The notes: generated by a model from the sequence alone, not told the origin. 28,543 nucleotides of DNA from Candidatus Gastranaerophilaceae bacterium (GCA_051875035.1 JBJEGL010000235.1:1-28543), one strand, 5' to 3'; counted from the stretch's first letter, positions 6,987-22,610 are shown. A program made the numbers and translations.

Positions 6987-8072
6987 ATGAAAATATCAGT
7001 TATAATGCCTGTTTATAATATCGAAAAATATCTTCCCGAGGCAGTTGAAAGTATTTTAAATCAATCATTTTCAGATTTTGAACTTGTTATTCTTGATGAT
7101 AAATCAAAAGATAATACACTTTCTGTTGCATATCAATATGCACAAAAGGACAGCAGAATAAGAGTTATCGAGCTTGAAGAACATCAAAAGCAGGGGCTTG
7201 GCAGAAATAGGGGTATCTCTGAGGCACAAGGGGATTACATAATGTTTTTAGACGGAGATGATATTGCCCGTCCGCATTTTTTGGAAAAAATGTATAATGC
7301 AGTAACCAATGCAGATGCGGATATTGCCATGTGCAGATTTGAAACATTGGACGATAAAACTAAAAAGATATCCGACAATCATCCTTTTGGTGATATTAAT
7401 CTATCTGATGACGCAAAAAGAAACGGATTTACGCCAAAAGATATTCAAAGTCAAATTTTTACTATTCCGAATATTGTTTGGAATAAAATTTATAAACGAA
7501 GTTTCTTGCTCGAAAAAAATCTGAAACTTCCCGGTGTTATTACAATGTGTGAGGATATAATTTTCGGAATAAATTCGACTCTGCAAGCAAAAAAACTTGT
7601 TTATGTTGATGAAAGTCTTTTGTATTACAGAATTAATCGTCCTAAATCTTCCAGCGGCGGGCGTGATGAGTCTTTTTTCGATAACTTTACGATGTATGAA
7701 ATTTTGGCTCAGAATTTTAAAGATATCGGTGTTTATGAAGACATAAAAAAATATTTTATAACTGATGCAATATATAATTTGATTTATTTTTTGGAAAGAA
7801 TTAAGCCTCAATACAGAAGAAAGTTTTTTTATAAAATGCAGGAAGTTTTTGAAAAATTTTACCAACAGGAATTTTATTCCGAAGATAAAATGCTTCAATT
7901 TGATGCTACAACATTTTTTCATCTTAATAGAATAAGACAAAATTCTTATTATAAATACGGTATTTTGAACTTCTTTGATAAATTTTTCAGAATAGAAAAA
8001 TGGGTTGGCGGATATGCGGTTGTTGTATTTTCAAAGTATGAATTTTGGATTGACACAAACAAAGAAAGTTAA
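6987..8072 (+). CDS. Glycosyltransferase family 2 (copy 1)
   Basis: KISVIMPVYN, ILDDKSKDNT, GRNRGI, MFLDGDD (DXD), WNKIYKR, CED; RBS GAGGAG. Confidence 0.92.
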   Translation: MKISVIMPVYNIEKYLPEAVESILNQSFSDFELVILDDKSKDNTLSVAYQYAQKDSRIRVIELEEHQKQGLGRNRGISEAQGDYIMFLDGDDIARPHFLEKMYNAVTNADADIAMCRFETLDDKTKKISDNHPFGDINLSDDAKRNGFTPKDIQSQIFTIPNIVWNKIYKRSFLLEKNLKLPGVITMCEDIIFGINSTLQAKKLVYVDESLLYYRINRPKSSSGGRDESFFDNFTMYEILAQNFKDIGVYEDIKKYFITDAIYNLIYFLERIKPQYRRKFFYKMQEVFEKFYQQEFYSEDKMLQFDATTFFHLNRIRQNSYYKYGILNFFDKFFRIEKWVGGYAVVVFSKYEFWIDTNKES

Positions 8073-9337
8073 ACCATATCAGAGAATTTTGCAATAATTT
8101 TTTCACAATTTTCAATATGTCTTTTTTGTTTTTCATTTTGAAAAGGCATTGCAATTACAGGAATAGACTCATCTTGTGATTTTCTGTCAATATCAAAAAC
8201 AAAATAACCGTCAGATGAGGGTAAAAGCATAGTCATTTCTTTATCCAAAACAAGTTTTCTTCCGTCTTTCAGGTTCACTATGCCGTTTTCTGCGTGTAAA
8301 TAATGTGCGTCATAAAAGCAGGTACAACGTTTACAGCTTGGCAAACATCCGTTTTGTATTAATTCATTTCTTAAAATCTCTGCTTTTTTACTGCTCCAAA
8401 TATCCCAAAAATCTTGTTTTATAAAATTTCCGCAGGTACTGTACAGACAAGTTGCAACTTCTCCGTTAGGAAGAATAAACGGAACATTCCAAGGTGAAAC
8501 GCAAAGGCGGGATGATACCCCCACCCCCCGCAAATTCTGTACTTCTTTTTCATTATAATATGCAAGTCTTTCCTGCTCGGAAAAAGCAGGGTATTCAACA
8601 ACTTTTCTACCTTTATATTTTTTATTGATAAAGTTAAAAAATTCATTTACTTTATTAATATATTCATCATTGAAAATATAATCTTTATTTGTATGTAAAT
8701 GTAGTTTTTGCGGGCTGTTAAGACCCAAATTATTGCATATTTTTAATGTTTCCTCTTCTGTCTGATAACTTGTATATCTCGGATGATTTAATACTAAATC
8801 TGTTAAGTTAAATTGTTCAAAAAATTCTGTAAACTGTATTGCTTCATCGATATTATCCGGTAAAATAACCGAATTAACTCTGCAAAATATTTTTCTGCCG
8901 TAGGATTTTGAAGATTTGATTTTTTCAAGAATTTTAATTGTTTTAGAAAAACTATCTTTTGTATGAGTCAGAGAATTTTGTGTATTTTCAAGTCCGTGTA
9001 CCGAAATTGTAAGACCGGTATTTGTTTTTAAAATTGTATCAAGATGCTTGTCTAAGAAATAGCCGTTAGTAATAACATGCGGATAGATTCCTTTTTTCCA
9101 AGCATTAATAATGATACTGTCAAAATCTTTATGTAAAAGAGGTTCTCCTCCCATAAAAACAATACGGGGATGCTCTATCTTTTTTGTTAAACTGTCAAAC
9201 AGAATATTCCAATCTTCTGCACAAAGTTCAGACATTGTTTGTTCTCTGAATTCGGAACCTTGAGTACACATATCACATTTAAAATTGCACCGAAAAGTGA
9301 GATAAACAACAAATTCCATACTGTCAACTTCAAGCAT
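8069..9337 (-). CDS. Radical SAM protein with twitch/SPASM-type C-terminal Cys motif and a 79-aa extra tail (rSAM-C)
   Basis: CNFKCDMC (CxxxCxxC), GGEP, TNGY, C-terminal CVSPW...TCLYSTCGN...CKRCTC. Start moved from 9388 to ATG 9337 (RBS GAGG). Confidence 0.9.
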   Translation of the reverse strand: MLEVDSMEFVVYLTFRCNFKCDMCTQGSEFREQTMSELCAEDWNILFDSLTKKIEHPRIVFMGGEPLLHKDFDSIIINAWKKGIYPHVITNGYFLDKHLDTILKTNTGLTISVHGLENTQNSLTHTKDSFSKTIKILEKIKSSKSYGRKIFCRVNSVILPDNIDEAIQFTEFFEQFNLTDLVLNHPRYTSYQTEEETLKICNNLGLNSPQKLHLHTNKDYIFNDEYINKVNEFFNFINKKYKGRKVVEYPAFSEQERLAYYNEKEVQNLRGVGVSSRLCVSPWNVPFILPNGEVATCLYSTCGNFIKQDFWDIWSSKKAEILRNELIQNGCLPSCKRCTCFYDAHYLHAENGIVNLKDGRKLVLDKEMTMLLPSSDGYFVFDIDRKSQDESIPVIAMPFQNEKQKRHIENCEKIIAKFSDMV

Positions 9338-9389
9338 TATAACCTCTTTAATTTTTGTAATTATAACTTTTATTTCTTGTAAAATCAAC

Positions 9390-9427
9390 TTGACCGTATA
9401 AATATAAAAGAATATACTTGTTATAAT
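9390..9427 (+). promoter_or_regulatory. Sigma70-type promoter(s) for the tandem radical SAM genes
   Basis: TTGACC (9390-9395), 17 nt, TATACT (9413-9418); also extended -10 TGtTATAAT (9419-9427). Confidence 0.6.
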
Positions 9428-9447
9428 GAACCTAAAAGGGACTTGTA

Positions 9448-10494
9448 ATGAGCCGATTATTTTATCAAAGAAAAAATGTCAAACTGGAAAAACACCACTT
9501 GATTGAGCAATATAAAAATAAGTCAGAATTGCCTAAACATATAAGACTTGATGTGAGTACCGTTTGTCAATTGAAATGCCCTTCCTGCTATATGAGACAG
9601 GAAGAAGAAGCCGTGAAAAAAGGGTGTAAAATAGGTAATTTAAAATTTGAAAATTTTAAAAAATTAATAGATGATAATGATATTGAAAGTATTGAACTTT
9701 CTAACAGCGGTGAAATATTTTTAAACCCTGATTTAATTAAAATTTTGGAATATGCACATAAAAGAAATATATGGCTGACTGCCGACAACGGTGTTAACTT
9801 GAATTATTTGACGGATGAACAGGCAGAAGCTTTATCAAAGTACGAATTACGTTCAATGACGATTTCTTTAGACGGAGCTTCTCAGGAAACATATCAAATT
9901 TATAGAGTTAACGGCAATTATGATAATGTTATTGCCAATATTGAAAAAATAAATTTTTATAAAAAGAAATATAAAAACGGTTGTCCGCATATAGTTTGGA
10001 AATTTATTGTATTCGGTCATAACGAACACGAAGTTCAAAAAGCTAAAAAAGAAGCAAAACGACTCGGATGCGAAATAAAATTTGATGCAAATTGGGATGA
10101 AAATTATTCGCAAATTAAAAATCCGCAAAAGGTTCTTAAAGAAACAGGCTTAGCCTCTTTAGATGTTAATGTTTCTCCTATAGAACAGTTAAAAGAATAT
10201 GAAGAAGGTATTGTGGATTGGTTTTTCTGTCGTGATTTGTGGGAGCCTCAAATTAATTGGGATGGTCAAATTTTAGGATGTTGTGCTAATTTTAAAGAAA
10301 ATTTCGGCGGAAATGCTTTTGAAGAAGGATTATTAAATGCTCTAAATCATCCAAATATGATTTATGCTAAAAATATGGTAACAAACAACGCAAAACCCGC
10401 TAAAGATATACCTTGTTCAAGATGCTGGGTATATAAAGATATGTATAAGAAAAATATTTGGTTAAAATCACCTAAAGTTGAAGGAATACTGTAA
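9448..10494 (+). CDS. Radical SAM protein with BtrN-like twitch domain (rSAM-A)
   Basis: CQLKCPSC, SNSGE in place of GGE, SLDGAS-ETY--YRVNG, C-terminal C...WDGQILGCC...GN...PCSRC. Confidence 0.9.
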   Translation: MSRLFYQRKNVKLEKHHLIEQYKNKSELPKHIRLDVSTVCQLKCPSCYMRQEEEAVKKGCKIGNLKFENFKKLIDDNDIESIELSNSGEIFLNPDLIKILEYAHKRNIWLTADNGVNLNYLTDEQAEALSKYELRSMTISLDGASQETYQIYRVNGNYDNVIANIEKINFYKKKYKNGCPHIVWKFIVFGHNEHEVQKAKKEAKRLGCEIKFDANWDENYSQIKNPQKVLKETGLASLDVNVSPIEQLKEYEEGIVDWFFCRDLWEPQINWDGQILGCCANFKENFGGNAFEEGLLNALNHPNMIYAKNMVTNNAKPAKDIPCSRCWVYKDMYKKNIWLKSPKVEGIL

Positions 10495-10496
10495 TT

Positions 10497-11585
10497 ATGA
10501 CGCCTAAAATTCGTAAAACATACGAAATGAAAGATAAATATATGTTTGAAGCATATAAAGATGCTTCCGAATTGCCGAAAAAAATTAGAATAGAAGCCAG
10601 CTCAAAATGCCAGTTAAACTGTGTAAAATGCTATATGAGAATGGATCCCGAAGGTGTGGAAAAAGGCTGCAAGCTCGGTAATCTTAAATTCTCCGATTTT
10701 AAAAAATTTGTTGATGCAAATGATTTTGAAGAAATTGAAATCTCAAATCACGGTGAAATATTCTTAAACCCTGAACTTGAACAAATTATCAAATATGCAT
10801 ACAAAAAAGGTATTAAACTTTATGCAGGTAACGGTGTTAATTTGAATTATCTTCCCGATAGTGTTGCCGAAGCTCTTGTTAAATATGAGTTTGGTTCAAT
10901 GGATGTTTCAATAGACGGTGCTTCTCAAGAAACATACAAACAATACAGAGTAAACGGTAATTTTGATAAAGTTATTGAAAATATCGAAAAAATAAATTTT
11001 TACAAGAAAAAATATAAATCCGAATTCCCTGTTTTAAATTGGAAATTCATTGTTTTCGGACATAATGAACATGAAATTCCTCTTGCAAAAAAGCTGGCTA
11101 AAAAATTAAAAATGAACATAGACTTTACCCCGAACTGTATGCCTGATTATTCTCCTTTAAAAAATGAGGCAAAGGTTATCAAACAAACAGGTTTGGATAC
11201 AATGGACCTCGCTCCCCATGTTATGTTGGAACAATATAATAACCATGAATCTGATTGGTTCTACTGTGCCTTTTTGTGGGAAGAACCTCAAATTAATTGG
11301 GACGGAAAAATTTTGGGCTGTTGTTCTTTATATAGCGATGATTTTGGTGGAAATGCCTTTGAAGAAGGATATTTACAGGCAATGAATCATCCTAAAATGA
11401 TTTATGCGAAAAATATGTTGACTCATAAAGCTCCTCCCGCAGAAGGCATACCTTGCACACATTGTTATGCTTTTCAAGATTTAATGGAAGCAAATAAATA
11501 TATGATTTCTCCCAAAAAGTTGAAAATAGAAGCAGAAAAAGCAAAAGCAAAAAAACAAAATAAATCCCGTAAAAAAGACAACTAA
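10497..11585 (+). CDS. Radical SAM protein with BtrN-like twitch domain (rSAM-B), tandem paralog of rSAM-A
   Basis: CQLNCVKC, SNHGE, SIDGASQETY, C...WDGKILGCC...GN...PCTHC; long identical blocks shared with 9448..10494. Confidence 0.9.
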   Translation: MTPKIRKTYEMKDKYMFEAYKDASELPKKIRIEASSKCQLNCVKCYMRMDPEGVEKGCKLGNLKFSDFKKFVDANDFEEIEISNHGEIFLNPELEQIIKYAYKKGIKLYAGNGVNLNYLPDSVAEALVKYEFGSMDVSIDGASQETYKQYRVNGNFDKVIENIEKINFYKKKYKSEFPVLNWKFIVFGHNEHEIPLAKKLAKKLKMNIDFTPNCMPDYSPLKNEAKVIKQTGLDTMDLAPHVMLEQYNNHESDWFYCAFLWEEPQINWDGKILGCCSLYSDDFGGNAFEEGYLQAMNHPKMIYAKNMLTHKAPPAEGIPCTHCYAFQDLMEANKYMISPKKLKIEAEKAKAKKQNKSRKKDN

Positions 11586-11632
11586 ATTTATTCTGTGGTT
11601 TATATAGCTGTTTACATCAAAGTGAACAAACT

Positions 11633-11735
11633 ATCATTCTGAGGTAGAAAAACAAAGACAACGACCGAAGAATCTCTTAAAAGTCAAAATCTATGTAAAA
11701 AAGATTCTTTACCCCCGAAATGCTAAAGAATGACA
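11633..11735. repeat. Inverted pair of REP-like elements (degenerate)
   Basis: ATCATTCTGAG...ACCGAAGAATCT (11633-11675) and the inverted copy AGATTCTTT...AAGAATGACA (11702-11735). Confidence 0.7.
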
Positions 11736-11776
11736 GCAATGTTCTTGCATATATCTATATAAAAGTTTGTTATTTT

Positions 11777-13126
11777 TTAGTTATCTTTAGTTACTTTTAT
11801 GATTTTTTTACAATGCGGGCATGCTATATTCATACCTTCATAATCTTTGGGAAATTTTAGTTTTGTTCCGCATTCACATTGTTTAAAAATATATTCTTGA
11901 GCCTGCCATATTGCATCTTCAGCTTCTCTTTTTCTTGTCAATATTTCCGACTTTTCTTGTGTTTGAACGGAAAAATGTTCCTCTGCCACTGGCATAGCCG
12001 AAATTGCTACAGTATTTTCAACAGCTTCTTTTAATGGAGTTCTTATTTTAAGACGTTTGCTGTCTTGTAAATCTTTCCTGTTTAAAATTGTACGGGAATG
12101 TGAACCTGAAACTTTTGCAAATGCTTCATTGTAAGATTTATAATCTGCTCCGCTCATTTTTAAAAGCACATCAATTCTTTTTTGAGTAGGAGGGTGTGTT
12201 GAAAAACAGCTGTTAAACATTGATTTTGGCGACTGTTTGTTTTTAGGATTTACCGTAAACATTGAATATATAATTTTGTTATACTTAATTCCTGCGGTAT
12301 TACCGTAGTCATCAACAATATTACATTCAATATCTTCTATATTACTACAGGAAATTTTTGCAAGAGCAGACGCTAAACCCGCAGGATATCTTGTAAATTG
12401 TGCAGCACACGCATCAGCTAAATATTCTCTGCGTTGAGAAATTAAAAAATACAGTAATTCCGCAACTATTGGTGCAATAATCATTGCAAGAACACAAATT
12501 AATAAAACTATTACATTTCCGCCTCCGCTGCTTTTTGAACTTCTTCTTGAACAACTTGAACGGGAAATACTCCTTAAACCGAATTCGCAGATAATAACAA
12601 TGGTGCCTATCATTACTCCTACAAGCAGCATATACAATGTATCCCGATTAACTATATGTGCAATTTCGTGAGCAATAACGCCCTGAAGTTCATCCCGGTT
12701 TAATTTTGTAAGAAGTCCCGTTGTTACCGCAACTGCTGAATTTTCAGGGGAAAGGCCTGTCGCAAAAGCATTTGGCATTTCCGTATCGATAACATATATT
12801 TCCGGAACTTTTGGTAATCCTGCCGCAATGGACATTTCTTCTACAACATTTTCAAGAACAAGATGGGCATGAGGGGGAAGCTTGTATGCATTTACGGTTG
12901 ATAAAACGAATTTTTTACCGTTTGTCAAAGCAGACAATAAAAGACATATCCACACAATAACTGATACAACTATGCCTGTTTCAATAAAAAATACTATGTT
13001 TTCTATATCTTCAACATAAGAGGCAAACATTCCTCCTAAAGCCGCACCCACTGTCATAAGTAGAAAAAGCATTGCTGTTATTAAAATAATAGAATTTCTT
13101 TTATTATTTTGTATTTGCTGCCACAT
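11777..13126 (-). CDS. htpX: HtpX-like M48 zinc metalloprotease with C-terminal zinc ribbon
   Basis: PNAFATG, ELQGVIAHEIAH (HEXXH), ISQRREYLAD, STHPPT-KRI; extra C-terminal CECG...CPHC. Confidence 0.85.
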   Translation of the reverse strand: MWQQIQNNKRNSIILITAMLFLLMTVGAALGGMFASYVEDIENIVFFIETGIVVSVIVWICLLLSALTNGKKFVLSTVNAYKLPPHAHLVLENVVEEMSIAAGLPKVPEIYVIDTEMPNAFATGLSPENSAVAVTTGLLTKLNRDELQGVIAHEIAHIVNRDTLYMLLVGVMIGTIVIICEFGLRSISRSSCSRRSSKSSGGGNVIVLLICVLAMIIAPIVAELLYFLISQRREYLADACAAQFTRYPAGLASALAKISCSNIEDIECNIVDDYGNTAGIKYNKIIYSMFTVNPKNKQSPKSMFNSCFSTHPPTQKRIDVLLKMSGADYKSYNEAFAKVSGSHSRTILNRKDLQDSKRLKIRTPLKEAVENTVAISAMPVAEEHFSVQTQEKSEILTRKREAEDAIWQAQEYIFKQCECGTKLKFPKDYEGMNIACPHCKKIIKVTKDN

Positions 13127-13134
13127 ATTTTATC

Positions 13135-13695
13135 CTAAAATTTAACTTGAGGAACCCCTTTTTCATCACTTGAAACTTCAAAAAAGTCTCTGTTTTCAAA
13201 ATTAAAAACGCCTGCAATAATATTGCTTGGGAACATTTCTTTTTTGTTATTGTATTGCAAAACAGAATCATTATAAAATTGTCTTGCGAAACTTATTTTA
13301 TTTTCTGTTGAAGTAAGTTCCTCTTGAAGTTGTAAGAAGTTTTGATTTGCTTTTAAGTCGGGATAATTTTCCGCAACTGCAAAAAGTGATTTTAAAGCAC
13401 TCGATAAAGCATTTTCGGCAGCAGCTCGTTCTTTAACATTATCTCCTATATTGACGGTCATTTGTCTTGCTTTTACAACTTTTTCAAGAGTTGCTGCTTC
13501 ATGAGAAGCATAACCTTTTACGGTTTCAATAAGATTCGGAATTAAATCGTGACGTCTTTTTAATTGGACATCAATTTGTGACCATGCATTTTTAACCTGA
13601 TTTTTAAGAACAATAAGCCCGTTATAAACTGCTATAACCCATAAAAACACTACTGCGAGAACGACTATCGGAAGAATCATTGTAATTTGCTGCAT
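13135..13695 (-). CDS. lemA: LemA family protein
   Basis: N-terminal TM segment, [52 protein letters not shown]. Confidence 0.95.
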
Positions 13696-13711
13696 ATATA
13701 CTCCTTTATTT

Positions 13712-14086
13712 TTAATTACCTATATTAAATACTTCACCCAAGAAATTTACTGTTTTATAATTTTTTAAATTACTGCCTGCCATATTTACAAATTGAGAAA
13801 GTTCACCCTTATCAAACCAAACTCCGTGAAATTTAGGGCATTTATCCAACAAAACACCGCTCATGTCAATTTTATGCATAGTCTTTCCGCAAACGGGACA
13901 CTTTCTTCCTTTTTCTTTTGAAAATACGGCATCATAATTAAACGGATTATATTTTTCGTTAATTACACCCAAAAGTTTCCATTCATCAGCATCAAACCAA
14001 AAACCTTCACATTCGGGACACCAGTCAAGTTCAATCTGATTACGTTCAACAACAATAAGCGGTTTTCCGCACTTTGGACAAAGCAT
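13712..14086 (-). CDS. Protein with two zf-TFIIB-like zinc ribbons
   Basis: CPKCG...[16 protein letters not shown] and CPVCG...[17 protein letters not shown]. Confidence 0.85.
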
Positions 14087-14235
14087 AAATACCCTCTTCT
14101 TTAAGATAATTGTACTACTTTTTCATGTATATATATGATTTTTTTTGATAAGAGTTATAAAAAGTAACAATTTTATTTATAATAATGACAAAGGGGAAAT
14201 AATCATTAAACTGAATTCATACAGGGAGATTGGAA

Positions 14236-14487
14236 ATGATTGACGGATTACAAAATTTTTTCGCAAAGGTTGCTGCACCAAACAATACTAATGCTGCTGC
14301 ACCTGTTCAAAAAACACAAATTTATTCAAACCCTTTTGCAAATCCTTTTTTAAGCCGTAACTTGGAACAAATGAACAGACGTAATGAACAATACGGAAAA
14401 AATAATCCTTTTCCCGGCGGCTATTTTGCAGGATATTACAATAATAAACCCAATATTGTCGGAAGAAAATTATTTGTTGAAGTATAA
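14236..14487 (+). CDS. Small hypothetical protein (83 aa), Asn/Pro-rich, three NPF motifs
   Basis: ATG 14236 with RBS AGGGAG; divergent from the zf-TFIIB operon; no family recognised. Confidence 0.6.
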   Translation: MIDGLQNFFAKVAAPNNTNAAAPVQKTQIYSNPFANPFLSRNLEQMNRRNEQYGKNNPFPGGYFAGYYNNKPNIVGRKLFVEV

Positions 14488-14528
14488 TTTGCTTAAAATG
14501 TTCCGGAAATTGGGAAATTTAGAAATAC

Positions 14529-14706
14529 AGATTCTTCAGTCACTTCTTCCTCTTGCAAAAAACATTCACCGGACGTTTTTTGCGGCGGCAGAGTGCTCAG
14601 TATGACATAAATTCTTCGGCTAAAGCCTCAGTATGACAGATTATTTGTGAATATACAGATTCTTCAGTCGCTGTTTTGGATTTTTCTCCCTCAGAATGAC
14701 GGATTA
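14529..14706. repeat. Cluster of three same-orientation REP-like elements
   Basis: AGATTCTTC...CTCAGTATGACA (14529-14607), AAATTCTTCGGCTAAAGCCTCAGTATGACA (14609-14638), AGATTCTTC...CTCAGAATGAC (14657-14700). Confidence 0.85.
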
Positions 14707-14710
14707 TTCA

Positions 14711-15733
14711 TTAATATCTAAAGTTTTTGTCTTTTAATTTTTGAAAAAATCTGTGCAATTGGAACGTATAATAGTTATTTTTCAATATTGATGATAATAA
14801 TTTATATGTTTCCGAATCTTGCGTTATATTATACTTATCTTCTATAAAACCTTCATATACGGATAATTCCGACTTCATCCTGTCAAAGAATTCTTTTCTA
14901 TACTTTTTATTTACTGCTTTATAGAAAAACATAAATGAATATGTTTGATATTGCATAAAAGCATTGTGAAATTTGAAAAATATACACAAATTTAACAAAT
15001 CTGCCTTTATCATTTCATACATTTTAAAACAGTCAAAAGTTGTTCTGTCTTTTTGGTTACTTGAAGATGTTTTTCTGTTGACTCTGTAAAATACAAGACA
15101 TTTATCCAATACCGTAATTTTTTTTGCACGGAAAATAGCTTTAAAAGAAAAAACATCATCTTCACAATACATGCCGCCCGGAAATTTTATGTCATTTTCA
15201 AGAATGAAAGATTTTTTATAAATTTTATCCCAAACAACATTACATTTATCAAATAAAGCAATCGGTTCACAATCTTTATAAGAAAATCCGTTATGTAAAT
15301 CTTTAGGTAAATCCGCATAATTTTGAAATTCATGTTCGTATGCGACTTTTCCCGTTTCATCATCAATTGTTGCAAATTTGCAAACAGTCATATCGGCATC
15401 ATCTTCCGAAATCTTTTTGTACATTTCTTCCGCACAATTGTTAGTAAAAGAATCGTCAACATCCAAGAATAGAATGTAATCCGCTTGAGCTTGTTCTATT
15501 GCAACATTTCTTGCATAACCCTGTCTGTGATTTTCTTCAAGTTCAATAAGTTTAATTCTGCTGTCTTCCGTCATTACCTGTTTAACAAGCTCAACCGTAT
15601 TGTCAGTTGATTTGTCATCAATAACAATAATTTCAATATCCTCTAAAGTCTGATTCATACAATTAATCAAACAAGATTGAATAAATTTCTTTGCATTATA
15701 TACCGGAATAATTATCGAAACTTTCGGACTCAT
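14711..15733 (-). CDS. Glycosyltransferase family 2 (copy 2, paralog of 6987..8072)
   Basis: KVSIIIPVYN, IDDKSTDNT, ARNVAI, LFLDVDD, WDKIYKK, CED. Start moved from 15751 to ATG 15733, 1 nt after the DegT stop. Confidence 0.92.
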   Translation of the reverse strand: MSPKVSIIIPVYNAKKFIQSCLINCMNQTLEDIEIIVIDDKSTDNTVELVKQVMTEDSRIKLIELEENHRQGYARNVAIEQAQADYILFLDVDDSFTNNCAEEMYKKISEDDADMTVCKFATIDDETGKVAYEHEFQNYADLPKDLHNGFSYKDCEPIALFDKCNVVWDKIYKKSFILENDIKFPGGMYCEDDVFSFKAIFRAKKITVLDKCLVFYRVNRKTSSSNQKDRTTFDCFKMYEMIKADLLNLCIFFKFHNAFMQYQTYSFMFFYKAVNKKYRKEFFDRMKSELSVYEGFIEDKYNITQDSETYKLLSSILKNNYYTFQLHRFFQKLKDKNFRY

Positions 15734-15734
15734 C

Positions 15735-16835
15735 TTATAACCTTCTCTCAATTGCTTTTATAGTTGTTTCACAAATTCTTTTTATATCTTTCTTTTCTAA
15801 TTCAAAATACAAAGGCATTTGCAGCATTCTGGCACAAACATCTTCTGCTACGGGGCATGCCTGATATTTTTTTAAATATTTAAGCGTATTTAATGTCGGA
15901 TAGTAACAATGCCACGGATAAATCCTGTGTTCACAAAGAGTATTCATAACATTATCCATTTCTTCTTTTGATTTAAGCACTATTACATAATAAGGATATT
16001 TATATTCAAGTTCTGGTTGTTTCTTTGGTACTTGAACAATATTGCCGAGCAATTCATCGTATGTTTGGCACAATTCTCTTCGTTTATTGATAATTTTGTC
16101 TATATACTTTAAGTTTGCAAGCCCCATTGCGGCATGAAGCTCCGAAAGTCTTGCGTTAAAACCGTCTCTTATATAATTGTCATCAACATGCCCGCATTTT
16201 TTTATCAATTCAAATTGTTCCATTAAATAAGGATTTGTACTAAATAATGCTCCGCCTTCCGCTGTGTGAAAAAGTTTGCTTTCCTGAAATGAAACAACGG
16301 AAACATCACCGTATTCAACAAGAGGTTTGCCTTTGTATTTAGCGGCAAATGCATGAGCAGCATCATATATAACTTTTAAATTATGTTTCTTTGCTATTTC
16401 TCCAATTTTTTCAAGATTGCAGGCATATCCGAAAATATGAACAGGCATGATTGCTCGTGTTTTAGGAGTAATTGCCGCTTCAATTTTATCCGCATCAATT
16501 GTAAAATTATCGGGTTCAATATCTACATATACTGGTTCGCATTTTTCTGCCAAAATAGCCGTTGTTGTTGCAACATATGAAAACGGAGTTGTTATTATTT
16601 CACTTCCCGGTTCAATATCCAGAGCTTTTATCGCCATTTGCAAACCGGTTGTTGCACTTGTAACAACTTTTATATCCTGAACATTTAAATATGTTTTTAA
16701 TTTCTGTTCAAGCTCTTGCAGTAAAACGCCGTAATCCGTAAATGTCTGATTTTTATAAGCTCTTTTTATAAAATCAGTATATTCTTTTAGCGGGGGCAAA
16801 AATGCCCTTGTCGTAAATATCTCTTTTTCTGCCAT
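15735..16835 (-). CDS. DegT/DnrJ/EryC1/StrS family PLP-dependent sugar aminotransferase (VioA-like)
   Basis: SATTGL, ITTPFSYVAT, IMPVHIFG, VIYDAAHAF, SFQESKLFHTAEGG (PLP lysine), GFNARLSELHAAMG. Confidence 0.92.
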   Translation of the reverse strand: MAEKEIFTTRAFLPPLKEYTDFIKRAYKNQTFTDYGVLLQELEQKLKTYLNVQDIKVVTSATTGLQMAIKALDIEPGSEIITTPFSYVATTTAILAEKCEPVYVDIEPDNFTIDADKIEAAITPKTRAIMPVHIFGYACNLEKIGEIAKKHNLKVIYDAAHAFAAKYKGKPLVEYGDVSVVSFQESKLFHTAEGGALFSTNPYLMEQFELIKKCGHVDDNYIRDGFNARLSELHAAMGLANLKYIDKIINKRRELCQTYDELLGNIVQVPKKQPELEYKYPYYVIVLKSKEEMDNVMNTLCEHRIYPWHCYYPTLNTLKYLKKYQACPVAEDVCARMLQMPLYFELEKKDIKRICETTIKAIERRL

Positions 16836-16918
16836 TGGAAACTTTTCTTAATAAATTATGCCAACTGCGGTTAAATATAAGCTGCAATATTTGCATACAA
16901 TGGTTGTACCTTATTTCT

Positions 16919-16989
16919 ATACTATCTCTTCATACTAATATGTCAATATGTAAGTATTTGTTGACATATTTTGCTAATGTTTTTACAAT
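16919..16989. promoter_or_regulatory. Back-to-back divergent sigma70 promoters whose -35 boxes lie in a 10-bp inverted repeat
   Basis: Plus: TTGACA (16961-16966), 17 nt, TACAAT (16984-16989). Minus: TTGACA (16946-16941), 16 nt, TAGTAT (16924-16919). IR AATATGTCAA-N14-TTGACATATT. Confidence 0.6.
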
Positions 16990-17015
16990 TAAAATTAATA
17001 TTTTAGGAGATTTTT

Positions 17016-18053
17016 ATGTCTAATAATACTATTAATGAGTTTATAACGTATATAACTTTCAGATGCAATTACAGATGCAAAATGTGTACTCAGGAAGGAA
17101 TTTCAAAAACTAAAGAGTTAAGTGCGAAAGAATGGGAGAAAATTTTTAAAGATATAGAAAAAAATTACCCTGGTTCAACACTTATTATACTTGGTGGAGA
17201 ACCGACACTTCATAAAGATTTTGCAGAAATTCTCGAGCGTGCATCAAGACAAAATATTCACAAACATATCGTCTCAAACGGATATTTTCTTGAACAGTAT
17301 TTACCTGTCATAAAGAAAAATTATTGCGGTGTAACAATTTCTATTGACGGTATCGGAGATACTCACGATAAAATCAGAAACCACGAAGGTGCTTTTGAAA
17401 AAGCCGAAGGCGTTATAAAAAAGATGTATGAGATGAATCAAAATCTTTTGGAAGGCGAAATACCTCTTTATTACAATATAAACTTTGTCATGTTGCCTGA
17501 TAATATTAATGAAATCTATGATTTTATTGACAGAATGCTGCAATACGACCCGAGAGAAATTGTTTTAAACCATCCGAGATATGTTTCTACGGAAAAAGAT
17601 AATACAATGCAATCTATTATGTCATCTTTATACACAGGACCTTATACAAGCAGATTAATGATGAGGCAAGATACGTCTTTTGACAAGGATTATGTTCAAA
17701 AACTCAATGAAATTGTAAAAGACGTAAAATCGAAATATAATCCGAAAATTATAAAAGAACTTCCTGATTTTTATGACGAGCAGGAACGCTTAGACTATTA
17801 TAACGATGAAAAAGCATATAAATTAAGAAAAAGCAGAAGATGTCTTTCTCCATACAAAATTCCGTTCTTTTTCCCTGACGGAAGTATAGCAAGCTGTCTG
17901 TACAATGTTTGCGGTAATGCTTTAAAAACACCCATTTCAAAGATATGGAACGGGGACGTTGCAAATAAAACCAGATTTTATTTGGATACAAACGGTAATT
18001 TCCCAACCTGTGCAAGATGCACTTGTTTTTATAAGGAAGAATGTGAAGAATAG
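17016..18053 (+). CDS. Radical SAM protein with twitch/SPASM-type C-terminal motif (rSAM-D), paralog of rSAM-C
   Basis: CNYRCKMC, GGEP, SNGY, ISIDG, CLSPY...SCLYNVCGN...CARCTC; RBS AGGAG. Confidence 0.9.
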   Translation: MSNNTINEFITYITFRCNYRCKMCTQEGISKTKELSAKEWEKIFKDIEKNYPGSTLIILGGEPTLHKDFAEILERASRQNIHKHIVSNGYFLEQYLPVIKKNYCGVTISIDGIGDTHDKIRNHEGAFEKAEGVIKKMYEMNQNLLEGEIPLYYNINFVMLPDNINEIYDFIDRMLQYDPREIVLNHPRYVSTEKDNTMQSIMSSLYTGPYTSRLMMRQDTSFDKDYVQKLNEIVKDVKSKYNPKIIKELPDFYDEQERLDYYNDEKAYKLRKSRRCLSPYKIPFFFPDGSIASCLYNVCGNALKTPISKIWNGDVANKTRFYLDTNGNFPTCARCTCFYKEECEE

Positions 18054-18059
18054 GGTTTT

Positions 18060-18500
18060 ATGGAACAACTTTCAAAAGAACAAAAAGCAAGAGATTTATT
18101 TCGACAAGGTTATAATTGTGCACAATCGGTTTTTTGTGCTTTTTGTGAAGATGTTGGCATTGATTTTAAAACAGGATTGAAATTATCTTCTTCTTTCGGC
18201 GGAGGTATGGGCAGATTAAGGGAAGTTTGCGGAGCTGTCAGTGCTATGTTTATGATAGCGGGTTTAAAATACGGATATACTTCACCCTGTGATGACGATA
18301 AAAAAGCCGCTCATTATAAGCTGATACAAGATTTGGCAGAAAAATTCAAACAGGAAAATCATTCTATTATATGCAGAGAACTTCTCGGATTAGATTCTGA
18401 CGGGTATTTTCCTTCAAAAAGGACCGAAGAATATTATAAAACAAGACCTTGTGAAGAATTAGTTGCTTCTGCCGCTTTAATTATTGAAAAAAATTTGTAA
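18060..18500 (+). CDS. C_GCAxxG_C_C family putative redox-active protein
   Basis: GYNCAQSV, SSFGGGMGRLREVCGAV, ICRELLG, PCEELV; 6 nt downstream of rSAM-D. Confidence 0.9.
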   Translation: MEQLSKEQKARDLFRQGYNCAQSVFCAFCEDVGIDFKTGLKLSSSFGGGMGRLREVCGAVSAMFMIAGLKYGYTSPCDDDKKAAHYKLIQDLAEKFKQENHSIICRELLGLDSDGYFPSKRTEEYYKTRPCEELVASAALIIEKNL

Positions 18501-18641: not shown

Positions 18642-18792
18642 TGTTATTCCGAGGGAACGAAGTGCCCGAGAATCTATGCCATACTCTAAGTGACAACACA
18701 AAAAGAACTGTCATACTGAGCGGTAGCGAAGTATCTCTTAATTTTTTAAGTTCATGTAAAAAGATTCTTTGTGCTATGCACTCTGAATGACA
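18642..18792. repeat. Cluster of three REP-like elements (two forward, one inverted)
   Basis: TGTTATTCCGAG...CGAGAATCT (18642-18675), TGTCATACTGAGCGGTAGCGAAGTATCT (18709-18736), AGATTCTTTG...CTCTGAATGACA (18762-18792). Confidence 0.8.
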
Positions 18793-19424: not shown

Positions 19425-21080
19425 ATGAATTTTGACTTTATTAAAAAACATCCCGATTTATTTACTTTTATAGGATTATCCGTTATTTTTTATTTCATAT
19501 TTATTTTTGGAATAGGTTCTTATCCCTTAATGGATATTGATGAAACAAGATACGCTTCAATGGCACATGATATGTTTTGCTCCAAAGATTTTATGACTCT
19601 CTATCTAAACGGAGAATATTTCTTTGAAAAACCACCGTTGTTCTTTTGGTTAGAATGTTTATCGTTCGGACTTTTCGGCAGAATTAACGAATTTACCGTC
19701 AGATTTCCTGTTGCAATGCTTGGTTTGTTATGTTCATTTTTAGTTTATTTTACGGGTAAAAAAATTGTTTCAAGAAAATTTGGAATTATTTCTGCTTTAA
19801 TTCTTGCAACATCAGCAGAATTTTTTATACTATCCAAGTTTTCCATTCTTGATATAGTATTAACTTTTTGTACAACTTTTTCAATTTTCTTCGGATTTAT
19901 GACATTATTTTGCGAAGAAAAAAATAAAAAATGGTTCTGGTGGTTGTTTTACATTTTTTCAGGACTTGCCGTTCTGGCAAAAGGAATTCCTGGGTTTGTT
20001 CTTCCCTTTGGAACAATGTTTTTTGTATACATTACAGCAAAAAAATTCAAAGAGCTTTTTAAACCGATGTTTTTTATTCCGGGATTTATAATATTTTTTG
20101 CAATTGTTTTACCCTGGCATTTATTAATGTTAGACAGGCATGATCCTTTATTTTTCAATGAATATATTATGAAACACCATATTGCAAGATTTACCACTTC
20201 TGCTGATTTGGGAAGAAAACAGCCCGTGTGGTTTTTTGCGGTAACTATACTCTGGGGATTTTTTCCGTGGATTTTACCGTTGATTGCATCTTGTAAAAAT
20301 TGGTTTTTGAAAATTGTGCAAACCTTTAAAAACGGTTTCGATTTTAACAAAATGGATAATTTGCAAAAATTTGTTACTATAAATGCAATAGCTGCAATAT
20401 TTACACTTGCTTTCTTTTCAAGTTCAAGTTCAAAACTGGTGACTTATATTTTACCGATTTATCCGTTTTTAGCTTGCTTAACTGCAAAAATAATTATAGA
20501 TTACAGCCAAAATGAAGAAATTAACAAATTTATAAGTATAATAAATTTTGTTTTTGGTGCAATTTTTATAGCTGCAGGATGTGCAATTCCATATATTATT
20601 AAGCCGTTTTTCCCTTCTGAAATAAGCAGTTTTGCTTTTGAGTTAACTCCGTTTTCACCAATATTAATTATTGGAGGTATTTTATTACTTGTATTTACAA
20701 TTAAAAAATCAAAAAAACAGCTTTTTATCTCTGTTATAGCAATTATGATAATGCTATCGTCAATAGGTATTCCGACCGCATTTAAGTTTGATTATCTCTT
20801 TGGTCAAAATGATTTAATGGAGTTTGCAAAACAAGCAAAGGAAAATAATCAACAACTCGCATCTTTCGGATTTGGAAGAAGATTTTCTTTGAATTATTAC
20901 TATCAAAAACACGTTATTTATGAGCAATTCCCGATTTATGAAAAATTGCAGGAATTATTAAACGATGACAACACTGTCGTCGTTATAAAAAATAAAGATT
21001 TGGAAGAATATAAAAAACACGCAAAATTTGCTGTAACAAAAAACGGATACAAATATTTGCTGATAAAAAAGGATAAGTAA
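19425..21080 (+). CDS. ArnT-like GT-C polyprenyl-phosphate-sugar transferase (GT83/PMT_2 family)
   Basis: Many TM segments, DIDETRYA-MA, LNGEYFFEKPPLFFW, VRFP, LAVLAKG, KLVTYILPIYP. Confidence 0.85.
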   Translation: MNFDFIKKHPDLFTFIGLSVIFYFIFIFGIGSYPLMDIDETRYASMAHDMFCSKDFMTLYLNGEYFFEKPPLFFWLECLSFGLFGRINEFTVRFPVAMLGLLCSFLVYFTGKKIVSRKFGIISALILATSAEFFILSKFSILDIVLTFCTTFSIFFGFMTLFCEEKNKKWFWWLFYIFSGLAVLAKGIPGFVLPFGTMFFVYITAKKFKELFKPMFFIPGFIIFFAIVLPWHLLMLDRHDPLFFNEYIMKHHIARFTTSADLGRKQPVWFFAVTILWGFFPWILPLIASCKNWFLKIVQTFKNGFDFNKMDNLQKFVTINAIAAIFTLAFFSSSSSKLVTYILPIYPFLACLTAKIIIDYSQNEEINKFISIINFVFGAIFIAAGCAIPYIIKPFFPSEISSFAFELTPFSPILIIGGILLLVFTIKKSKKQLFISVIAIMIMLSSIGIPTAFKFDYLFGQNDLMEFAKQAKENNQQLASFGFGRRFSLNYYYQKHVIYEQFPIYEKLQELLNDDNTVVVIKNKDLEEYKKHAKFAVTKNGYKYLLIKKDK

Positions 21081-21919
21081 TGGAAGTTATTGTAAATGCT
21101 GATGATTTTGGAATGAGCAGAAGCGTTAATACGGCTATTGTTGATGGATACAAAAGAGGTATTTTGACGAGTACATGTATTATGGCAAACATGCCATGGT
21201 TTAATGATGCAGTATTGAAACTTTCCGAAATTAAAGATATCGGTTTAGGTGTTCATCTTAACATTATTGAATACAAAACAATTTTAAAAACTCCGATTAA
21301 AAACAGTAAATTGTATAATAAAGAGGGATTTTTTAATAACGGATTCTTACAAATGATTATAAAATCTTTTGATAAAAAATTTATGGAAGAAGTTGAAAAA
21401 GAATTTCGCACTCAAATTGAAACTGTTTTGCAATATGCTCATCCAGACCATCTTGATTCTCATGTTCACACACACGCTATTCCTAATATTTTTAAACTCG
21501 TATGTAAATTGGCAAAAGAATACCATATTCCCTGTGTTAGAACGCAGTTTGAACATCTTTATTTTGATGGAAATAAAAAGAACTTTATTAACCTTAAATA
21601 TTATATAAATCTTATAAAAATTATTATTTTAAACACTTTTACATTTATAAACCGTAAAACGGCAAAAAAATACGGTATAAAGACAAACGACTGCGTAATA
21701 GGTGTTGGCTACACAGCAATGATGAATGAAAATACAATTCAAAAAGGAATAAACAAAGTCAAAAATAAACAAGAAATTCTTGAGGTAATCTGCCATCCCG
21801 ATTTAAATATTGAAAGACAGTCGAATTTAAATGAATACTATGCTGTTGTTAATCCTGAGATGTTAAAGTTCTTAGAAAACTTAAATACAATTTCATATAA
21901 AAATCTTTCGACAAAATAA
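21080..21919 (+). CDS. YdjC/ChbG family carbohydrate deacetylase (NaxD/LgmC/HpnK-like)
   Basis: IVNADDFG, GVHLN, HLDSHVHTH, EVICHP; coupled to the upstream gene by TAATG overlap. Confidence 0.9.
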   Translation: MEVIVNADDFGMSRSVNTAIVDGYKRGILTSTCIMANMPWFNDAVLKLSEIKDIGLGVHLNIIEYKTILKTPIKNSKLYNKEGFFNNGFLQMIIKSFDKKFMEEVEKEFRTQIETVLQYAHPDHLDSHVHTHAIPNIFKLVCKLAKEYHIPCVRTQFEHLYFDGNKKNFINLKYYINLIKIIILNTFTFINRKTAKKYGIKTNDCVIGVGYTAMMNENTIQKGINKVKNKQEILEVICHPDLNIERQSNLNEYYAVVNPEMLKFLENLNTISYKNLSTK

Positions 21920-21920
21920 G

Positions 21921-22610
21921 TTATTTTTGAAAATAAGATTTAAAAATGAATTTAAGAATTTTAAAACCATCACCAAAAATACTAAGTTTACTGTTAGAAT
22001 CTTCGGGTCTCGGGAAATAATCACAACTGTATTCTCTTACTTTTATATGTTTTTTAGATGCCATAATGTGTATTTCCGCTTCAATTTCAAAGCCTTTTGT
22101 TACAAAATTAAAAGACTTTAAAAAATCTTTTTTCAATAATTTATATCCTGATAAAATATCTGTGCAATTGCACTCAAACAAACAAGAAAATAATTTGTTG
22201 AAAAATGAATTACCAAATTTTCTTAAAGATTTAAAAGCACTTTTATCTTTTGCATTTCTCTTTACATTAATCAAATCAATTTGTTCTTTTTCAATTATTT
22301 CGGCAAATTTTTGCAAATCTTTTGTATCATAAGTTAAATCTCCGTCAACAAAGCAATATATTTCTGCATCAATTTCATTGACAGCTTTTTTTAAAGCATT
22401 CGCCTTACCCGCTTTTTCTTCGGATAATAATATCATATTTGAATTTTTTTCAATTACACTTTTTGCTTTTGATGCAGTGTCATCTTCGGAATTATTATCC
22501 ACAACACAAATAACAGCATCCGAAAGATTTTGCTCCGTTAACTTTTCAAGTACGGCAGCAATTGTTGCTCCTTCATTTTTACAAGGTATTATAACAGCAA
22601 GCTTTGTCAT
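21921..22610 (-). CDS. GT2 glycosyltransferase, DPM1/ArnC-like polyprenyl-phosphate sugar synthase
   Basis: VIIPCKNE, VVDNNSEDDT, GKANAL, FVDGDLTYD, DILSGYK, GFEIEAEI, SKLSIFGDG. Confidence 0.88.
   Translation of the reverse strand: MTKLAVIIPCKNEGATIAAVLEKLTEQNLSDAVICVVDNNSEDDTASKAKSVIEKNSNMILLSEEKAGKANALKKAVNEIDAEIYCFVDGDLTYDTKDLQKFAEIIEKEQIDLINVKRNAKDKSAFKSLRKFGNSFFNKLFSCLFECNCTDILSGYKLLKKDFLKSFNFVTKGFEIEAEIHIMASKKHIKVREYSCDYFPRPEDSNSKLSIFGDGFKILKFIFKSYFQK

Follow-up and report, generated by a model that had tools for sequence, protein, structure and literature searches.

Two paralogous glycosyltransferase-radical SAM modules in an uncultured gut Gastranaerophilales genome, with a probable role in decoration of a cell-surface sugar polymer

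What role do four radical S-adenosylmethionine (rSAM) enzymes play when their genes lie among those of two family 2 glycosyltransferases (GT2) and a DegT-family aminotransferase? This question is raised by positions 6987-18500 of a 28,543-nucleotide stretch of DNA (GC content ~31%; "the window" below always means the whole stretch) from Candidatus Gastranaerophilaceae bacterium (GCA_051875035.1 JBJEGL010000235.1:1-28543; genome of 1.83 Mb, 81% complete). The host belongs to the uncultured gut Gastranaerophilales (Melainabacteria lineage, non-photosynthetic relatives of cyanobacteria) and carries an exceptional load of orphan rSAM enzymes. A preliminary description of the locus had proposed one single 11.5-kb system; the analysis presented here resolves it into two paralogous modules of GT2s and twitch-like rSAM enzymes, split by unrelated genes; an uncharacterised family of these enzymes is tied to GT2s by gene order, co-occurrence and, in distant lineages, fusion. 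This system probably decorates a cell-surface sugar polymer by means of radical chemistry. A more specific reading, to which we assign about even chances, is that both modules (each a GT2 with twitch rSAM enzymes) serve a lineage-specific, variable glycan decoration, in which the DegT enzyme aminates the product of RmlA and RmlB and the adjacent rSAM enzyme (rSAM_D) acts after it.

Pfam searches recovered every gene named in the preliminary description (four rSAMs, two GT2s, DegT and a C_GCAxxG_C_C protein) at the coordinates given there. They also agreed with its observation that the window holds no short-chain dehydrogenase/reductase (SDR) dehydratase, no sugar dehydrogenase and no PqqD domain or RRE (recognition element of RiPPs, peptides made on ribosomes and modified after translation). 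The genes of immediate interest are as follows.

6987-8072, plus strand: GT2_1, Pfam PF00535 (Glycos_transf_2) at 131.8 bits, DXD-type motif FLDGDD
8069-9388, minus strand: rSAM_A, open reading frame (ORF) counted from a TTG, with a likely ATG start at 9337 (422 aa); Radical_SAM 60 bits, SPASM 35 bits
9448-10494, plus strand: rSAM_B, Radical_SAM 46 bits, SPASM 20.5 bits against a cut-off of 21.5
10497-11585, plus strand: rSAM_C, Radical_SAM over the cut-off, SPASM just below it
14711-15751, minus strand: GT2_2, PF00535 at 129.3 bits, DXD-type motif FLDVDD
15735-16835, minus strand: DegT aminotransferase, PF01041 at 307 bits against a cut-off of 19.8
16836-17015: intergenic region between the divergent DegT and rSAM_D genes, with back-to-back sigma-70-like matches
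17016-18053, plus strand: rSAM_D, Radical_SAM 77 bits, SPASM 26.5 bits
18060-18500, plus strand: C_GCAxxG_C_C protein, Pfam PF09719 at 131.5 bits

Most of these genes fall into paralogous pairs: rSAM_A and rSAM_D share 37% identity (BLASTP E 3e-81), rSAM_B and rSAM_C 58%, and GT2_1 and GT2_2 38%. By sequence, A/D and B/C have hardly any relationship to each other; they are referred to below as type I and type II, respectively. rSAM_A, for which we favor the ATG at 9337 because a 100% identical database cluster (P0179) is 422 aa long, has a C-terminal extension of ~85 aa relative to rSAM_D; rSAM_B and rSAM_C are tandem paralogs, the latter beginning 2 nt past the end of the former. GT2_2 and DegT form an operon, as the start of GT2_2 overlaps the end of DegT on the same strand. 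The two best sigma-70-like matches of the locus lie in the DegT/rSAM_D intergenic region (TTGACA-17-TACAAT on the plus strand, 16961-16989, 11/12; TTGACA-16-TAGTAT on the minus strand, 16946-16919, 10/12), although this putative divergent promoter pair is only suggestive since promoter-like sites as a whole are no more numerous than in shuffled sequences. The C_GCAxxG_C_C gene, located 6 nt downstream of rSAM_D, is probably co-transcribed with it in this genome.

Which of these genes belong together was addressed by a linkage survey of 401 species genomes of the family, including 12 of the window's own genus, which yielded 11 rSAM_D-type loci in 9 species genomes. Homologs of the rSAM_D type are few at a threshold of at least 45% identity, and those found (47-81% identity) are confined to this genus, where 9 of the 12 genomes carry them. 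DegT orthologs (at least 66% identity) occur in exactly the same nine genomes, and neither gene was found in the same remaining three (81-91% complete). A GT2_2 ortholog adjoins the rSAM_D-type gene in all 11 loci and DegT in 8 of them, the latter in divergent, convergent as well as co-directional arrangements; in one genus genome, DegT and GT2 sit on a separate contig from the rSAM_D-type gene. Two of the nine carrier genomes contain a second, more divergent rSAM_D-type copy, in both cases with a GT2 and without DegT (such rSAM_D-type/GT2 pairs are represented by L058, L059 and L018). Metagenomic loci agree with this picture. The linkage of rSAM_D, GT2 and DegT envisaged in the preliminary description is thus seen across the genus, while that of the C_GCAxxG_C_C gene is seen in this genome only: no homolog was found near rSAM_D-type genes in the related loci examined, and the genome itself has no further copy. 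The proposed role of this protein as an electron carrier or dedicated rSAM partner is weakened accordingly.

The other half of the locus shows a comparable arrangement. GT2_1, rSAM_B and rSAM_C follow one another on one strand, as an operon, in three relatives (L052, L053, L019). In two of these species (L052, L053), where the three genes are tightly spaced, the rSAM_D module directly abuts this triplet, with no M48, LemA or Zn-ribbon gene between them. Orthologs of rSAM_A lie beside GT2_1, divergent from the B/C pair, in close relatives only (L041, L043, L044). The conserved units are therefore GT2_2 with rSAM_D (usually with DegT), and GT2_1 with rSAM_B/C (sometimes with rSAM_A). The following four genes, which separate the two units in the window, are interlopers; indeed, M48-LemA is not found in the modules of relatives.

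11777-13126: M48 peptidase (Pfam)
13135-13695: LemA protein (Pfam)
13712-14086: double Zn-ribbon protein (Pfam)
14230-14487, plus strand: orf85, 85 aa, without a Pfam match

A second species of the genus has a homolog of orf85 (71% identity), there too next to LemA/M48, and orf85 is probably a real gene that is part of the LemA/M48 block and not of the rSAM modules. Inverted repeats resembling repetitive extragenic palindromes bracket this block (11611-11652 and 14681-14722) as well as the GT2_2-DegT-rSAM_D-C_GCAxxG block (14627-14646 and 18701-18720), with a shared core CTCAG(A/T)ATGAC; they may mark points of rearrangement, since relatives lack the M48 block between the modules. Two further gene sets were noted around the modules. 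A four-gene CP_ATPgrasp/Alpha-E/transglutaminase cluster repeatedly adjoins GT2_2 in relatives (L001, L017, L041, L055-L057, L060) and is absent from the window. At 19425-22610 the window encodes a three-component set for lipid-linked glycosylation, made up of a GT-C glycosyltransferase resembling ArnT, a YdjC deacetylase and a GT2 that is small and similar to Dpm1/AglJ; we considered this triad as a part of the rSAM modules and rejected it, as it is not near them in relatives.

Evidence for a carbohydrate role of the type I family also comes from beyond the genus. A type I profile was searched against 1.84 billion representative sequences and retrieved 770 clusters at E<=1e-30. Among its best matches are fusions of GT2 with one rSAM domain (P0397, 835 aa) or two (P0399, 1251 aa) and fusions of rSAM with an N-terminal Acyl_transf_3 domain, a sugar O-acyltransferase family (P0350, P0376). 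These proteins can be aligned with rSAM_D collinearly and along its entire length (22-29% identity), with the family motifs retained. The locus of the GT2-rSAM fusion (L063, 6579-17926), which comes from another metagenome, is co-directional and runs from a GT2 through the 835-aa fusion and a PIG-L deacetylase to three double rSAMs of ~705 aa, and a single-domain distant relative occurs in the order GT2, rSAM, GT4, SDR (L062). Within the window, the nearest solved relatives of GT2_2 are polymer or teichoic-acid GT2s (e.g., TarS, chondroitin synthase); neither GT2 reaches an NCBIfam equivalog cut-off, and no hydrophobic segments were found in the GT2s or the rSAMs. Concerning a possible peptide substrate, the rSAMs gave no Pfam match to an RRE or PqqD domain, and no small ORF that might encode a precursor is conserved beside the modules among related loci. 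Three candidate precursors were considered and rejected: a 60-aa ORF recurring near the module is part of the rplS neighborhood and in this genome has another location (C96); orf85 accompanies LemA/M48; and a Cys-rich 60-aa ORF of L004 (5006-5188, minus strand, 1.2 kb from DegT-rSAM_D) is not conserved elsewhere. Taken together, the fusions, the glycosyltransferase neighbors and the lack of an RRE and of a conserved small ORF make a carbohydrate role well supported and a RiPP role unlikely. The preliminary view of these genes as a sugar or glycan tailoring system, as opposed to peptide maturation, is in this respect borne out by linkage, co-occurrence, fusions and glycosyltransferase neighbors alike.

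What the rSAM enzymes themselves reveal is their class more than their chemistry. All four carry the CxxxCxxC motif (Cys 34/38/41, 40/44/47, 38/42/45 and 17/21/24 in rSAM_A to rSAM_D) and exceed the PF04055 cut-off, whereas only rSAM_A and rSAM_D exceed that of SPASM; in rSAM_B, the SAM-binding GGE motif is replaced by a variant, SNSGE. The rSAM core begins at about residue 8 in rSAM_D and within ~10-35 residues of the N-terminus across the rSAMs. An alignment of 24 type I sequences has four invariant C-terminal Cys (C276, C294, C332 and C335 of rSAM_D), the remaining C-terminal Cys being variable, and one of 26 type II sequences has five (C257, C275, C276, C320 and C323 of rSAM_C). The SPASM motif comprises seven Cys and two clusters, and twitch is its truncated form with one cluster (PMC6231123). 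With four to five invariant Cys in place of the seven-Cys motif, both types are thus twitch-like with one predicted auxiliary cluster, so that the short auxiliary-cluster tail first noticed in the window stands up to conservation analysis.

Function could not be read from similarity to described enzymes. None of the four rSAMs exceeded an NCBIfam cut-off (the best match, a tungsten-cofactor maturase model, scored 70-80 bits against 380), a sequence search of the PDB matched rSAM_D solely in its N-terminal core (SkfB, BlsE) and gave nothing for rSAM_C, and an ESM Atlas look-up returned only generic "radical SAM/SPASM" clusters. AlphaFold models of rSAM_D and rSAM_C (pLDDT, the predicted local distance difference test score, 91 and 93) were compared with known structures by Foldseek and VIA-align. 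The nearest folds are tied both for rSAM_D (BlsE Z 24.7, SuiB 24.6, SkfB 24.4, DesII 22.6, anSME 22.2; BtrN 18.4) and for rSAM_C (DesII Z 19.1, SuiB 18.9, SkfB 18.5, anSME 18.4; BtrN 15.4), all at 11-20% identity. As RiPP maturases, sugar-nucleotide enzymes and anSME tie at the top, no functional placement follows from structure; the comparison of the predicted models neither favors nor excludes any chemistry and points to no special kinship with BtrN. A sequence similarity network is likewise unlikely to settle the function, since twitch/SPASM enzymes fail to group by function in such networks (SkfB paper, PMC6231123).

The type II enzymes have to be viewed against the exceptional rSAM richness of the genome. 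Its 1.83 Mb contain 51 matches to the Radical_SAM domain, so that several such genes lying together stand out less than they would in most other genomes. Six type II paralogs are present, four of them outside the window as neighbors of FtsY, DnaB, amino-acid permeases and CTP synthase, and arrays of three to five type II genes without a GT2 occur elsewhere (L034, L035). The tie of rSAM_B/C to glycan genes is for this reason weaker than that of rSAM_D. Several observations on this wider rSAM repertoire may be added. A GDSL/SGNH hydrolase adjoins type II arrays in two unrelated contexts (L034, 5166-11341, with five in tandem; L041, 11386-14518), which hints that such arrays act on an acylated glycan or lipid. 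The genome (G000) also contains arrays of rSAMs with an N-terminal SPASM/twitch domain, four of them consecutive on contig C152, one being a fusion of 706 aa to a type II domain; the contigs concerned by the observations on its rSAM genes are C152, C264, C183, C294 and C298. In six other genera, A-like rSAMs (414-437 aa, 31-38% identical to rSAM_D) belong to a separate conserved operon with Pfam-less proteins of ~430, 450 and 620 aa and an adjoining protein-kinase-domain gene (L013-L016; G127, G124, G117, G108). This operon was examined as a functional clue and set aside as a different system that offers no hint.

The substrate class of DegT bears most directly on the chemistry of the second module. 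The window enzyme, with Lys187 in the motif SFQESK at what we take to be the position of the Schiff-base lysine of pyridoxal phosphate, has its best NCBIfam matches below cut-off: WecE-type PRK11706 (214 bits, cut-off 375), PseC (209) and DesI (183, cut-off 650). Its nearest clade outside the genus (49-55% identity, ~28 genomes, none with a D-type rSAM) is encoded in rmlB-rmlA-DegT operons in which the next gene is a GT56 (WecF-like) or resembles WbqC, a single case also having rmlC and rmlD, and has as its best NCBIfam match DesI, the dTDP-4-dehydro-6-deoxyglucose aminotransferase. Judged by sequence relationships, the window DegT is most likely a dTDP-4-keto-6-deoxyhexose 4-aminotransferase of the DesI/WecE-like kind. 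Other contigs of this genome encode RmlB (83% identity), two RmlA, RmlC and RmlD; the genome also carries three more DegT genes and no fewer than eight genes of the SDR epimerase/dehydratase kind. Of 10 other genus genomes searched, 9 have RmlB, among them genomes that lack the module. With RmlA and RmlB encoded, the usual keto substrate of DegT would be available without any rSAM; as a capacity, a conventional dehydratase elsewhere in the genome, which the preliminary description had named as a finding that would speak against its proposal, is therefore at hand. The existence of rSAM/GT2 pairs without DegT also implies that feeding the transaminase is not the sole job of the rSAMs. The module encodes no enzyme that would acylate the amine, in keeping with an amino group that is either short-lived or undergoes further processing.

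From these data we infer the substrate, order of steps, type of reaction and acceptor as follows. Housekeeping RmlA and RmlB would make dTDP-4-keto-6-deoxyglucose, which DegT would aminate at C-4 to a dTDP-4-amino-4,6-dideoxyhexose. rSAM_D would then perform a radical step on the amino sugar, either as a nucleotide sugar or after its transfer; options include abstraction of the C-3 hydrogen followed by deamination, oxidation or epimerisation, in the order of DesI and DesII. GT2_2 would install the product on a glycan acceptor, and the first module (GT2_1 with rSAM_B/C, here also with rSAM_A) may treat a second sugar in a corresponding way, with no amination step. By analogy, this proposed DesI/DesII-like order, with amination first and the radical step after it, would fit better than a route in which the rSAM acts first. 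The auxiliary cluster in BtrN and anSME has been linked to, or proposed for, oxidation of the substrate radical (PMC6231123), and that predicted for rSAM_D would by the same analogy fit an oxidative outcome. In a bolder version, which we regard as doubtful, rSAM_D and DegT would be an NAD-independent radical pair for sugar editing in primary envelope-glycan synthesis: rSAM_D would abstract a hydrogen from the carbon next to the aminated C-4 and deaminate or oxidise, giving a 3-keto-4,6-dideoxy or a 3-keto-4-amino sugar that the same DegT may aminate again (cf. BtrR) before the GT2 installs it, and the whole family of 770+ clusters, with its fusions to GT2 or O-acyltransferase domains, would represent an undescribed class of enzymes for radical sugar tailoring coupled to glycan assembly.

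Several points weigh against the glycan-decoration scheme or parts of it. The reaction type of rSAM_D is a guess. With 11-13% identity, rSAM_D and DesII show no evident homology beyond the superfamily, and rSAM_D has a predicted auxiliary cluster, unlike DesII. The amino sugar is not the substrate of every module, given that DegT accompanies neither the rSAM_A module nor two of the rSAM_D copies. In a metagenomic locus, L004, the DegT-rSAM_D pair is without a GT2 within 18 kb. Searches around the modules showed no priming transferase, flippase, polymerase or exporter. The link of rSAM_B/C with GT2_1 is seen in close relatives only, the family lying elsewhere in arrays beside housekeeping genes. 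Finally, a part of the rSAM_D synteny is inherited and not independently selected, as all its loci come from one genus.

Four alternative explanations have to be weighed on the same evidence. In one, the arrangement would be partially a coincidence: rSAM_B/C and possibly rSAM_A would be members of an expanded orphan family that lie near glycan genes by chance, and the functional unit would be GT2_2-DegT-rSAM_D only. The rSAM load of the genome, the dispersed type II paralogs and the GT2-free arrays are all in line with this, as is a B/C pair at 67% identity in L035 with neither GT2 nor rSAM_A nearby. On the other hand, the co-directional, tightly spaced order of GT2_1, rSAM_B and rSAM_C recurs in several species, stands directly against the second module in L052 and L053, and rSAM_A, rSAM_B, rSAM_C and GT2_1 are found together again in L041. 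The linkage evidence is weak in both directions because all these genomes are close relatives, and we consider such a coincidence less likely than not. It is also conceivable, although in our estimate unlikely, that the target of the rSAMs is not a donor sugar but a glycan that is lipid-linked or already complete, or else an acceptor other than a sugar (lipid, small aglycone) glycosylated by the GT2s, with a glycolipid or small glycoside as the product in place of a surface polymer. The fusions to GT2 and to the membrane domain Acyl_transf_3 would place radical chemistry at the site of glycan assembly, genes for polymer export or polymerisation are not nearby, a PIG-L deacetylase is present in L063, and the GDSL/SGNH hydrolases beside type II arrays (L034, L041) usually act on finished glycans or lipids. 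However, the tight tie to a nucleotide-sugar aminotransferase is explained more simply by tailoring of the donor sugar, neither the GT2s nor the rSAMs have hydrophobic segments, and the known sugar rSAMs of comparable fold (DesII, BlsE, BtrN) use soluble small molecules.

The route favored by the preliminary description, in which rSAM_D (and its paralogs) would act as an NAD-independent dehydrogenase or epimerase and provide the ketone that DegT aminates, following the logic of BtrN and BtrR and with the C_GCAxxG_C_C protein as electron carrier, appears quite improbable. rSAM_D and DegT do co-occur perfectly, mostly adjoin each other and share back-to-back promoter-like sites, the window lacks a dehydratase or dehydrogenase, the single, fully Cys-ligated twitch pattern of rSAM_D recalls the cluster that has been proposed to oxidise the substrate radical in BtrN and anSME (PMC6231123), and DesII itself is able to dehydrogenate a TDP-sugar at C-3 (PMC11434129). 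Yet the sister DegT clade takes a substrate supplied by rmlA/rmlB, RmlA and RmlB are encoded in this genome (RmlB being near-universal in the genus), rSAM_D-type/GT2 pairs and an rSAM_A module exist without DegT, adjacency of the C_GCAxxG_C_C gene is not conserved, and BtrN, with no PDB sequence match, scores below the tied top structures (Z 18.4 and 15.4 against 24.7 and 19.1). These points weaken the dehydrogenase proposal. Least credible of all is a RiPP-like system with the rSAMs as peptide or protein maturases, the GT2s glycosylating the peptide (cf. glycocins) and M48 processing it, which we consider very remote. SPASM/twitch enzymes are frequent in RiPP clusters, the maturases SuiB and SkfB tie with others at the top of the structural comparison, SunS gives a weak match to GT2, and an M48 peptidase lies within the stretch. 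Against this, the core of rSAM_D starting at about residue 8 leaves no RRE or PqqD domain, no small ORF is conserved beside the modules, M48-LemA does not accompany them in relatives, and DegT together with the GT2 and acyltransferase fusions indicates sugars.

To our knowledge, radical SAM sugar chemistry is known almost entirely from antibiotic pathways (desosamine, butirosin, blasticidin). Literature searches on rSAM with DegT and GT2, on rSAMs of Gastranaerophilales and on rSAMs in polysaccharide loci found no description of the present family. Tailoring of envelope glycans, if true, would add oxygen-independent deoxygenation, oxidation or epimerisation to the repertoire of surface-sugar biosynthesis and could account for strain-variable glycans in uncultured anaerobes. 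Should rSAM_D and DegT indeed be a radical sugar-editing pair, they would stand for a family of 770+ clusters, common among anaerobes and found also in a lineage of the human gut. The rSAM_D-DegT-GT2 triad, being small, predicted to be soluble and having a plausible substrate route from purchasable material (dTDP-glucose, RmlB, DegT), offers a practical entry to this large family.

Among known systems, the nearest precedent for the second module in terms of logic is the DesI/DesII pair of TDP-desosamine biosynthesis in Streptomyces venezuelae. DesII, the rSAM partner of DesI, abstracts the C-3 hydrogen and deaminates TDP-4-amino-4,6-dideoxyglucose, and it can dehydrogenate TDP-quinovose (PMC11434129); the words auxiliary, SPASM and twitch are absent from the paper describing its structure (PMC11434129). 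Common to both systems would be a DegT-family 4-aminotransferase for dTDP-4-keto-6-deoxyglucose (here a predicted one) beside an rSAM acting (here putatively) on the amino sugar and an RmlA/RmlB-type supply, and DesII is among the tied top structural matches of rSAM_D (Z 22.6, 303 residues aligned, 11% identity) and of rSAM_C (Z 19.1). In contrast, DesII gave no match to rSAM_D in the PDB sequence search, the window DegT reaches 183 bits against the DesI equivalog cut-off of 650, and there is here no second aminotransferase, methyltransferase or macrolide context but a GT2 partner in the primary-metabolism setting of a gut commensal. BtrN and BtrR of butirosin biosynthesis likewise pair an rSAM having one Cys-ligated auxiliary cluster with a DegT-family aminotransferase, and BtrN shares its fold with rSAM_D (Z 18.4, root-mean-square deviation 2.8, 223 residues aligned). 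However, BtrN has no PDB sequence match at E<=0.01 and ranks 30th among structural matches, no cyclitol context is seen here, and the DegT clade is of the dTDP-hexose and not the glutamine:scyllo-inosose type.

The HpnI/HpnK/HpnJ pathway, which converts hopanoid glucosamine to a cyclitol ether, provides a further parallel, in that a GT2 and then a sugar deacetylase are followed by an rSAM that remodels the sugar once it is attached. The window likewise encodes, 3-4 kb downstream, a YdjC deacetylase and a small GT2, and PIG-L is found in L063. HpnJ, however, is a B12-binding class B rSAM and not a twitch enzyme, and the YdjC/ArnT triad of the window is not linked to the modules in relatives. 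Lastly, the GT2-rSAM fusions and rSAM-rich glycan loci of uncultured anaerobes differ from the present locus, where GT2 and rSAM are separate genes, DegT is part of a module and the distribution is limited to one Gastranaerophilales genus. Nevertheless, they contain the same rSAM family (profile E ~1e-43, 29% identity over the full length) in the same association with GT2 and sugar-modifying enzymes.

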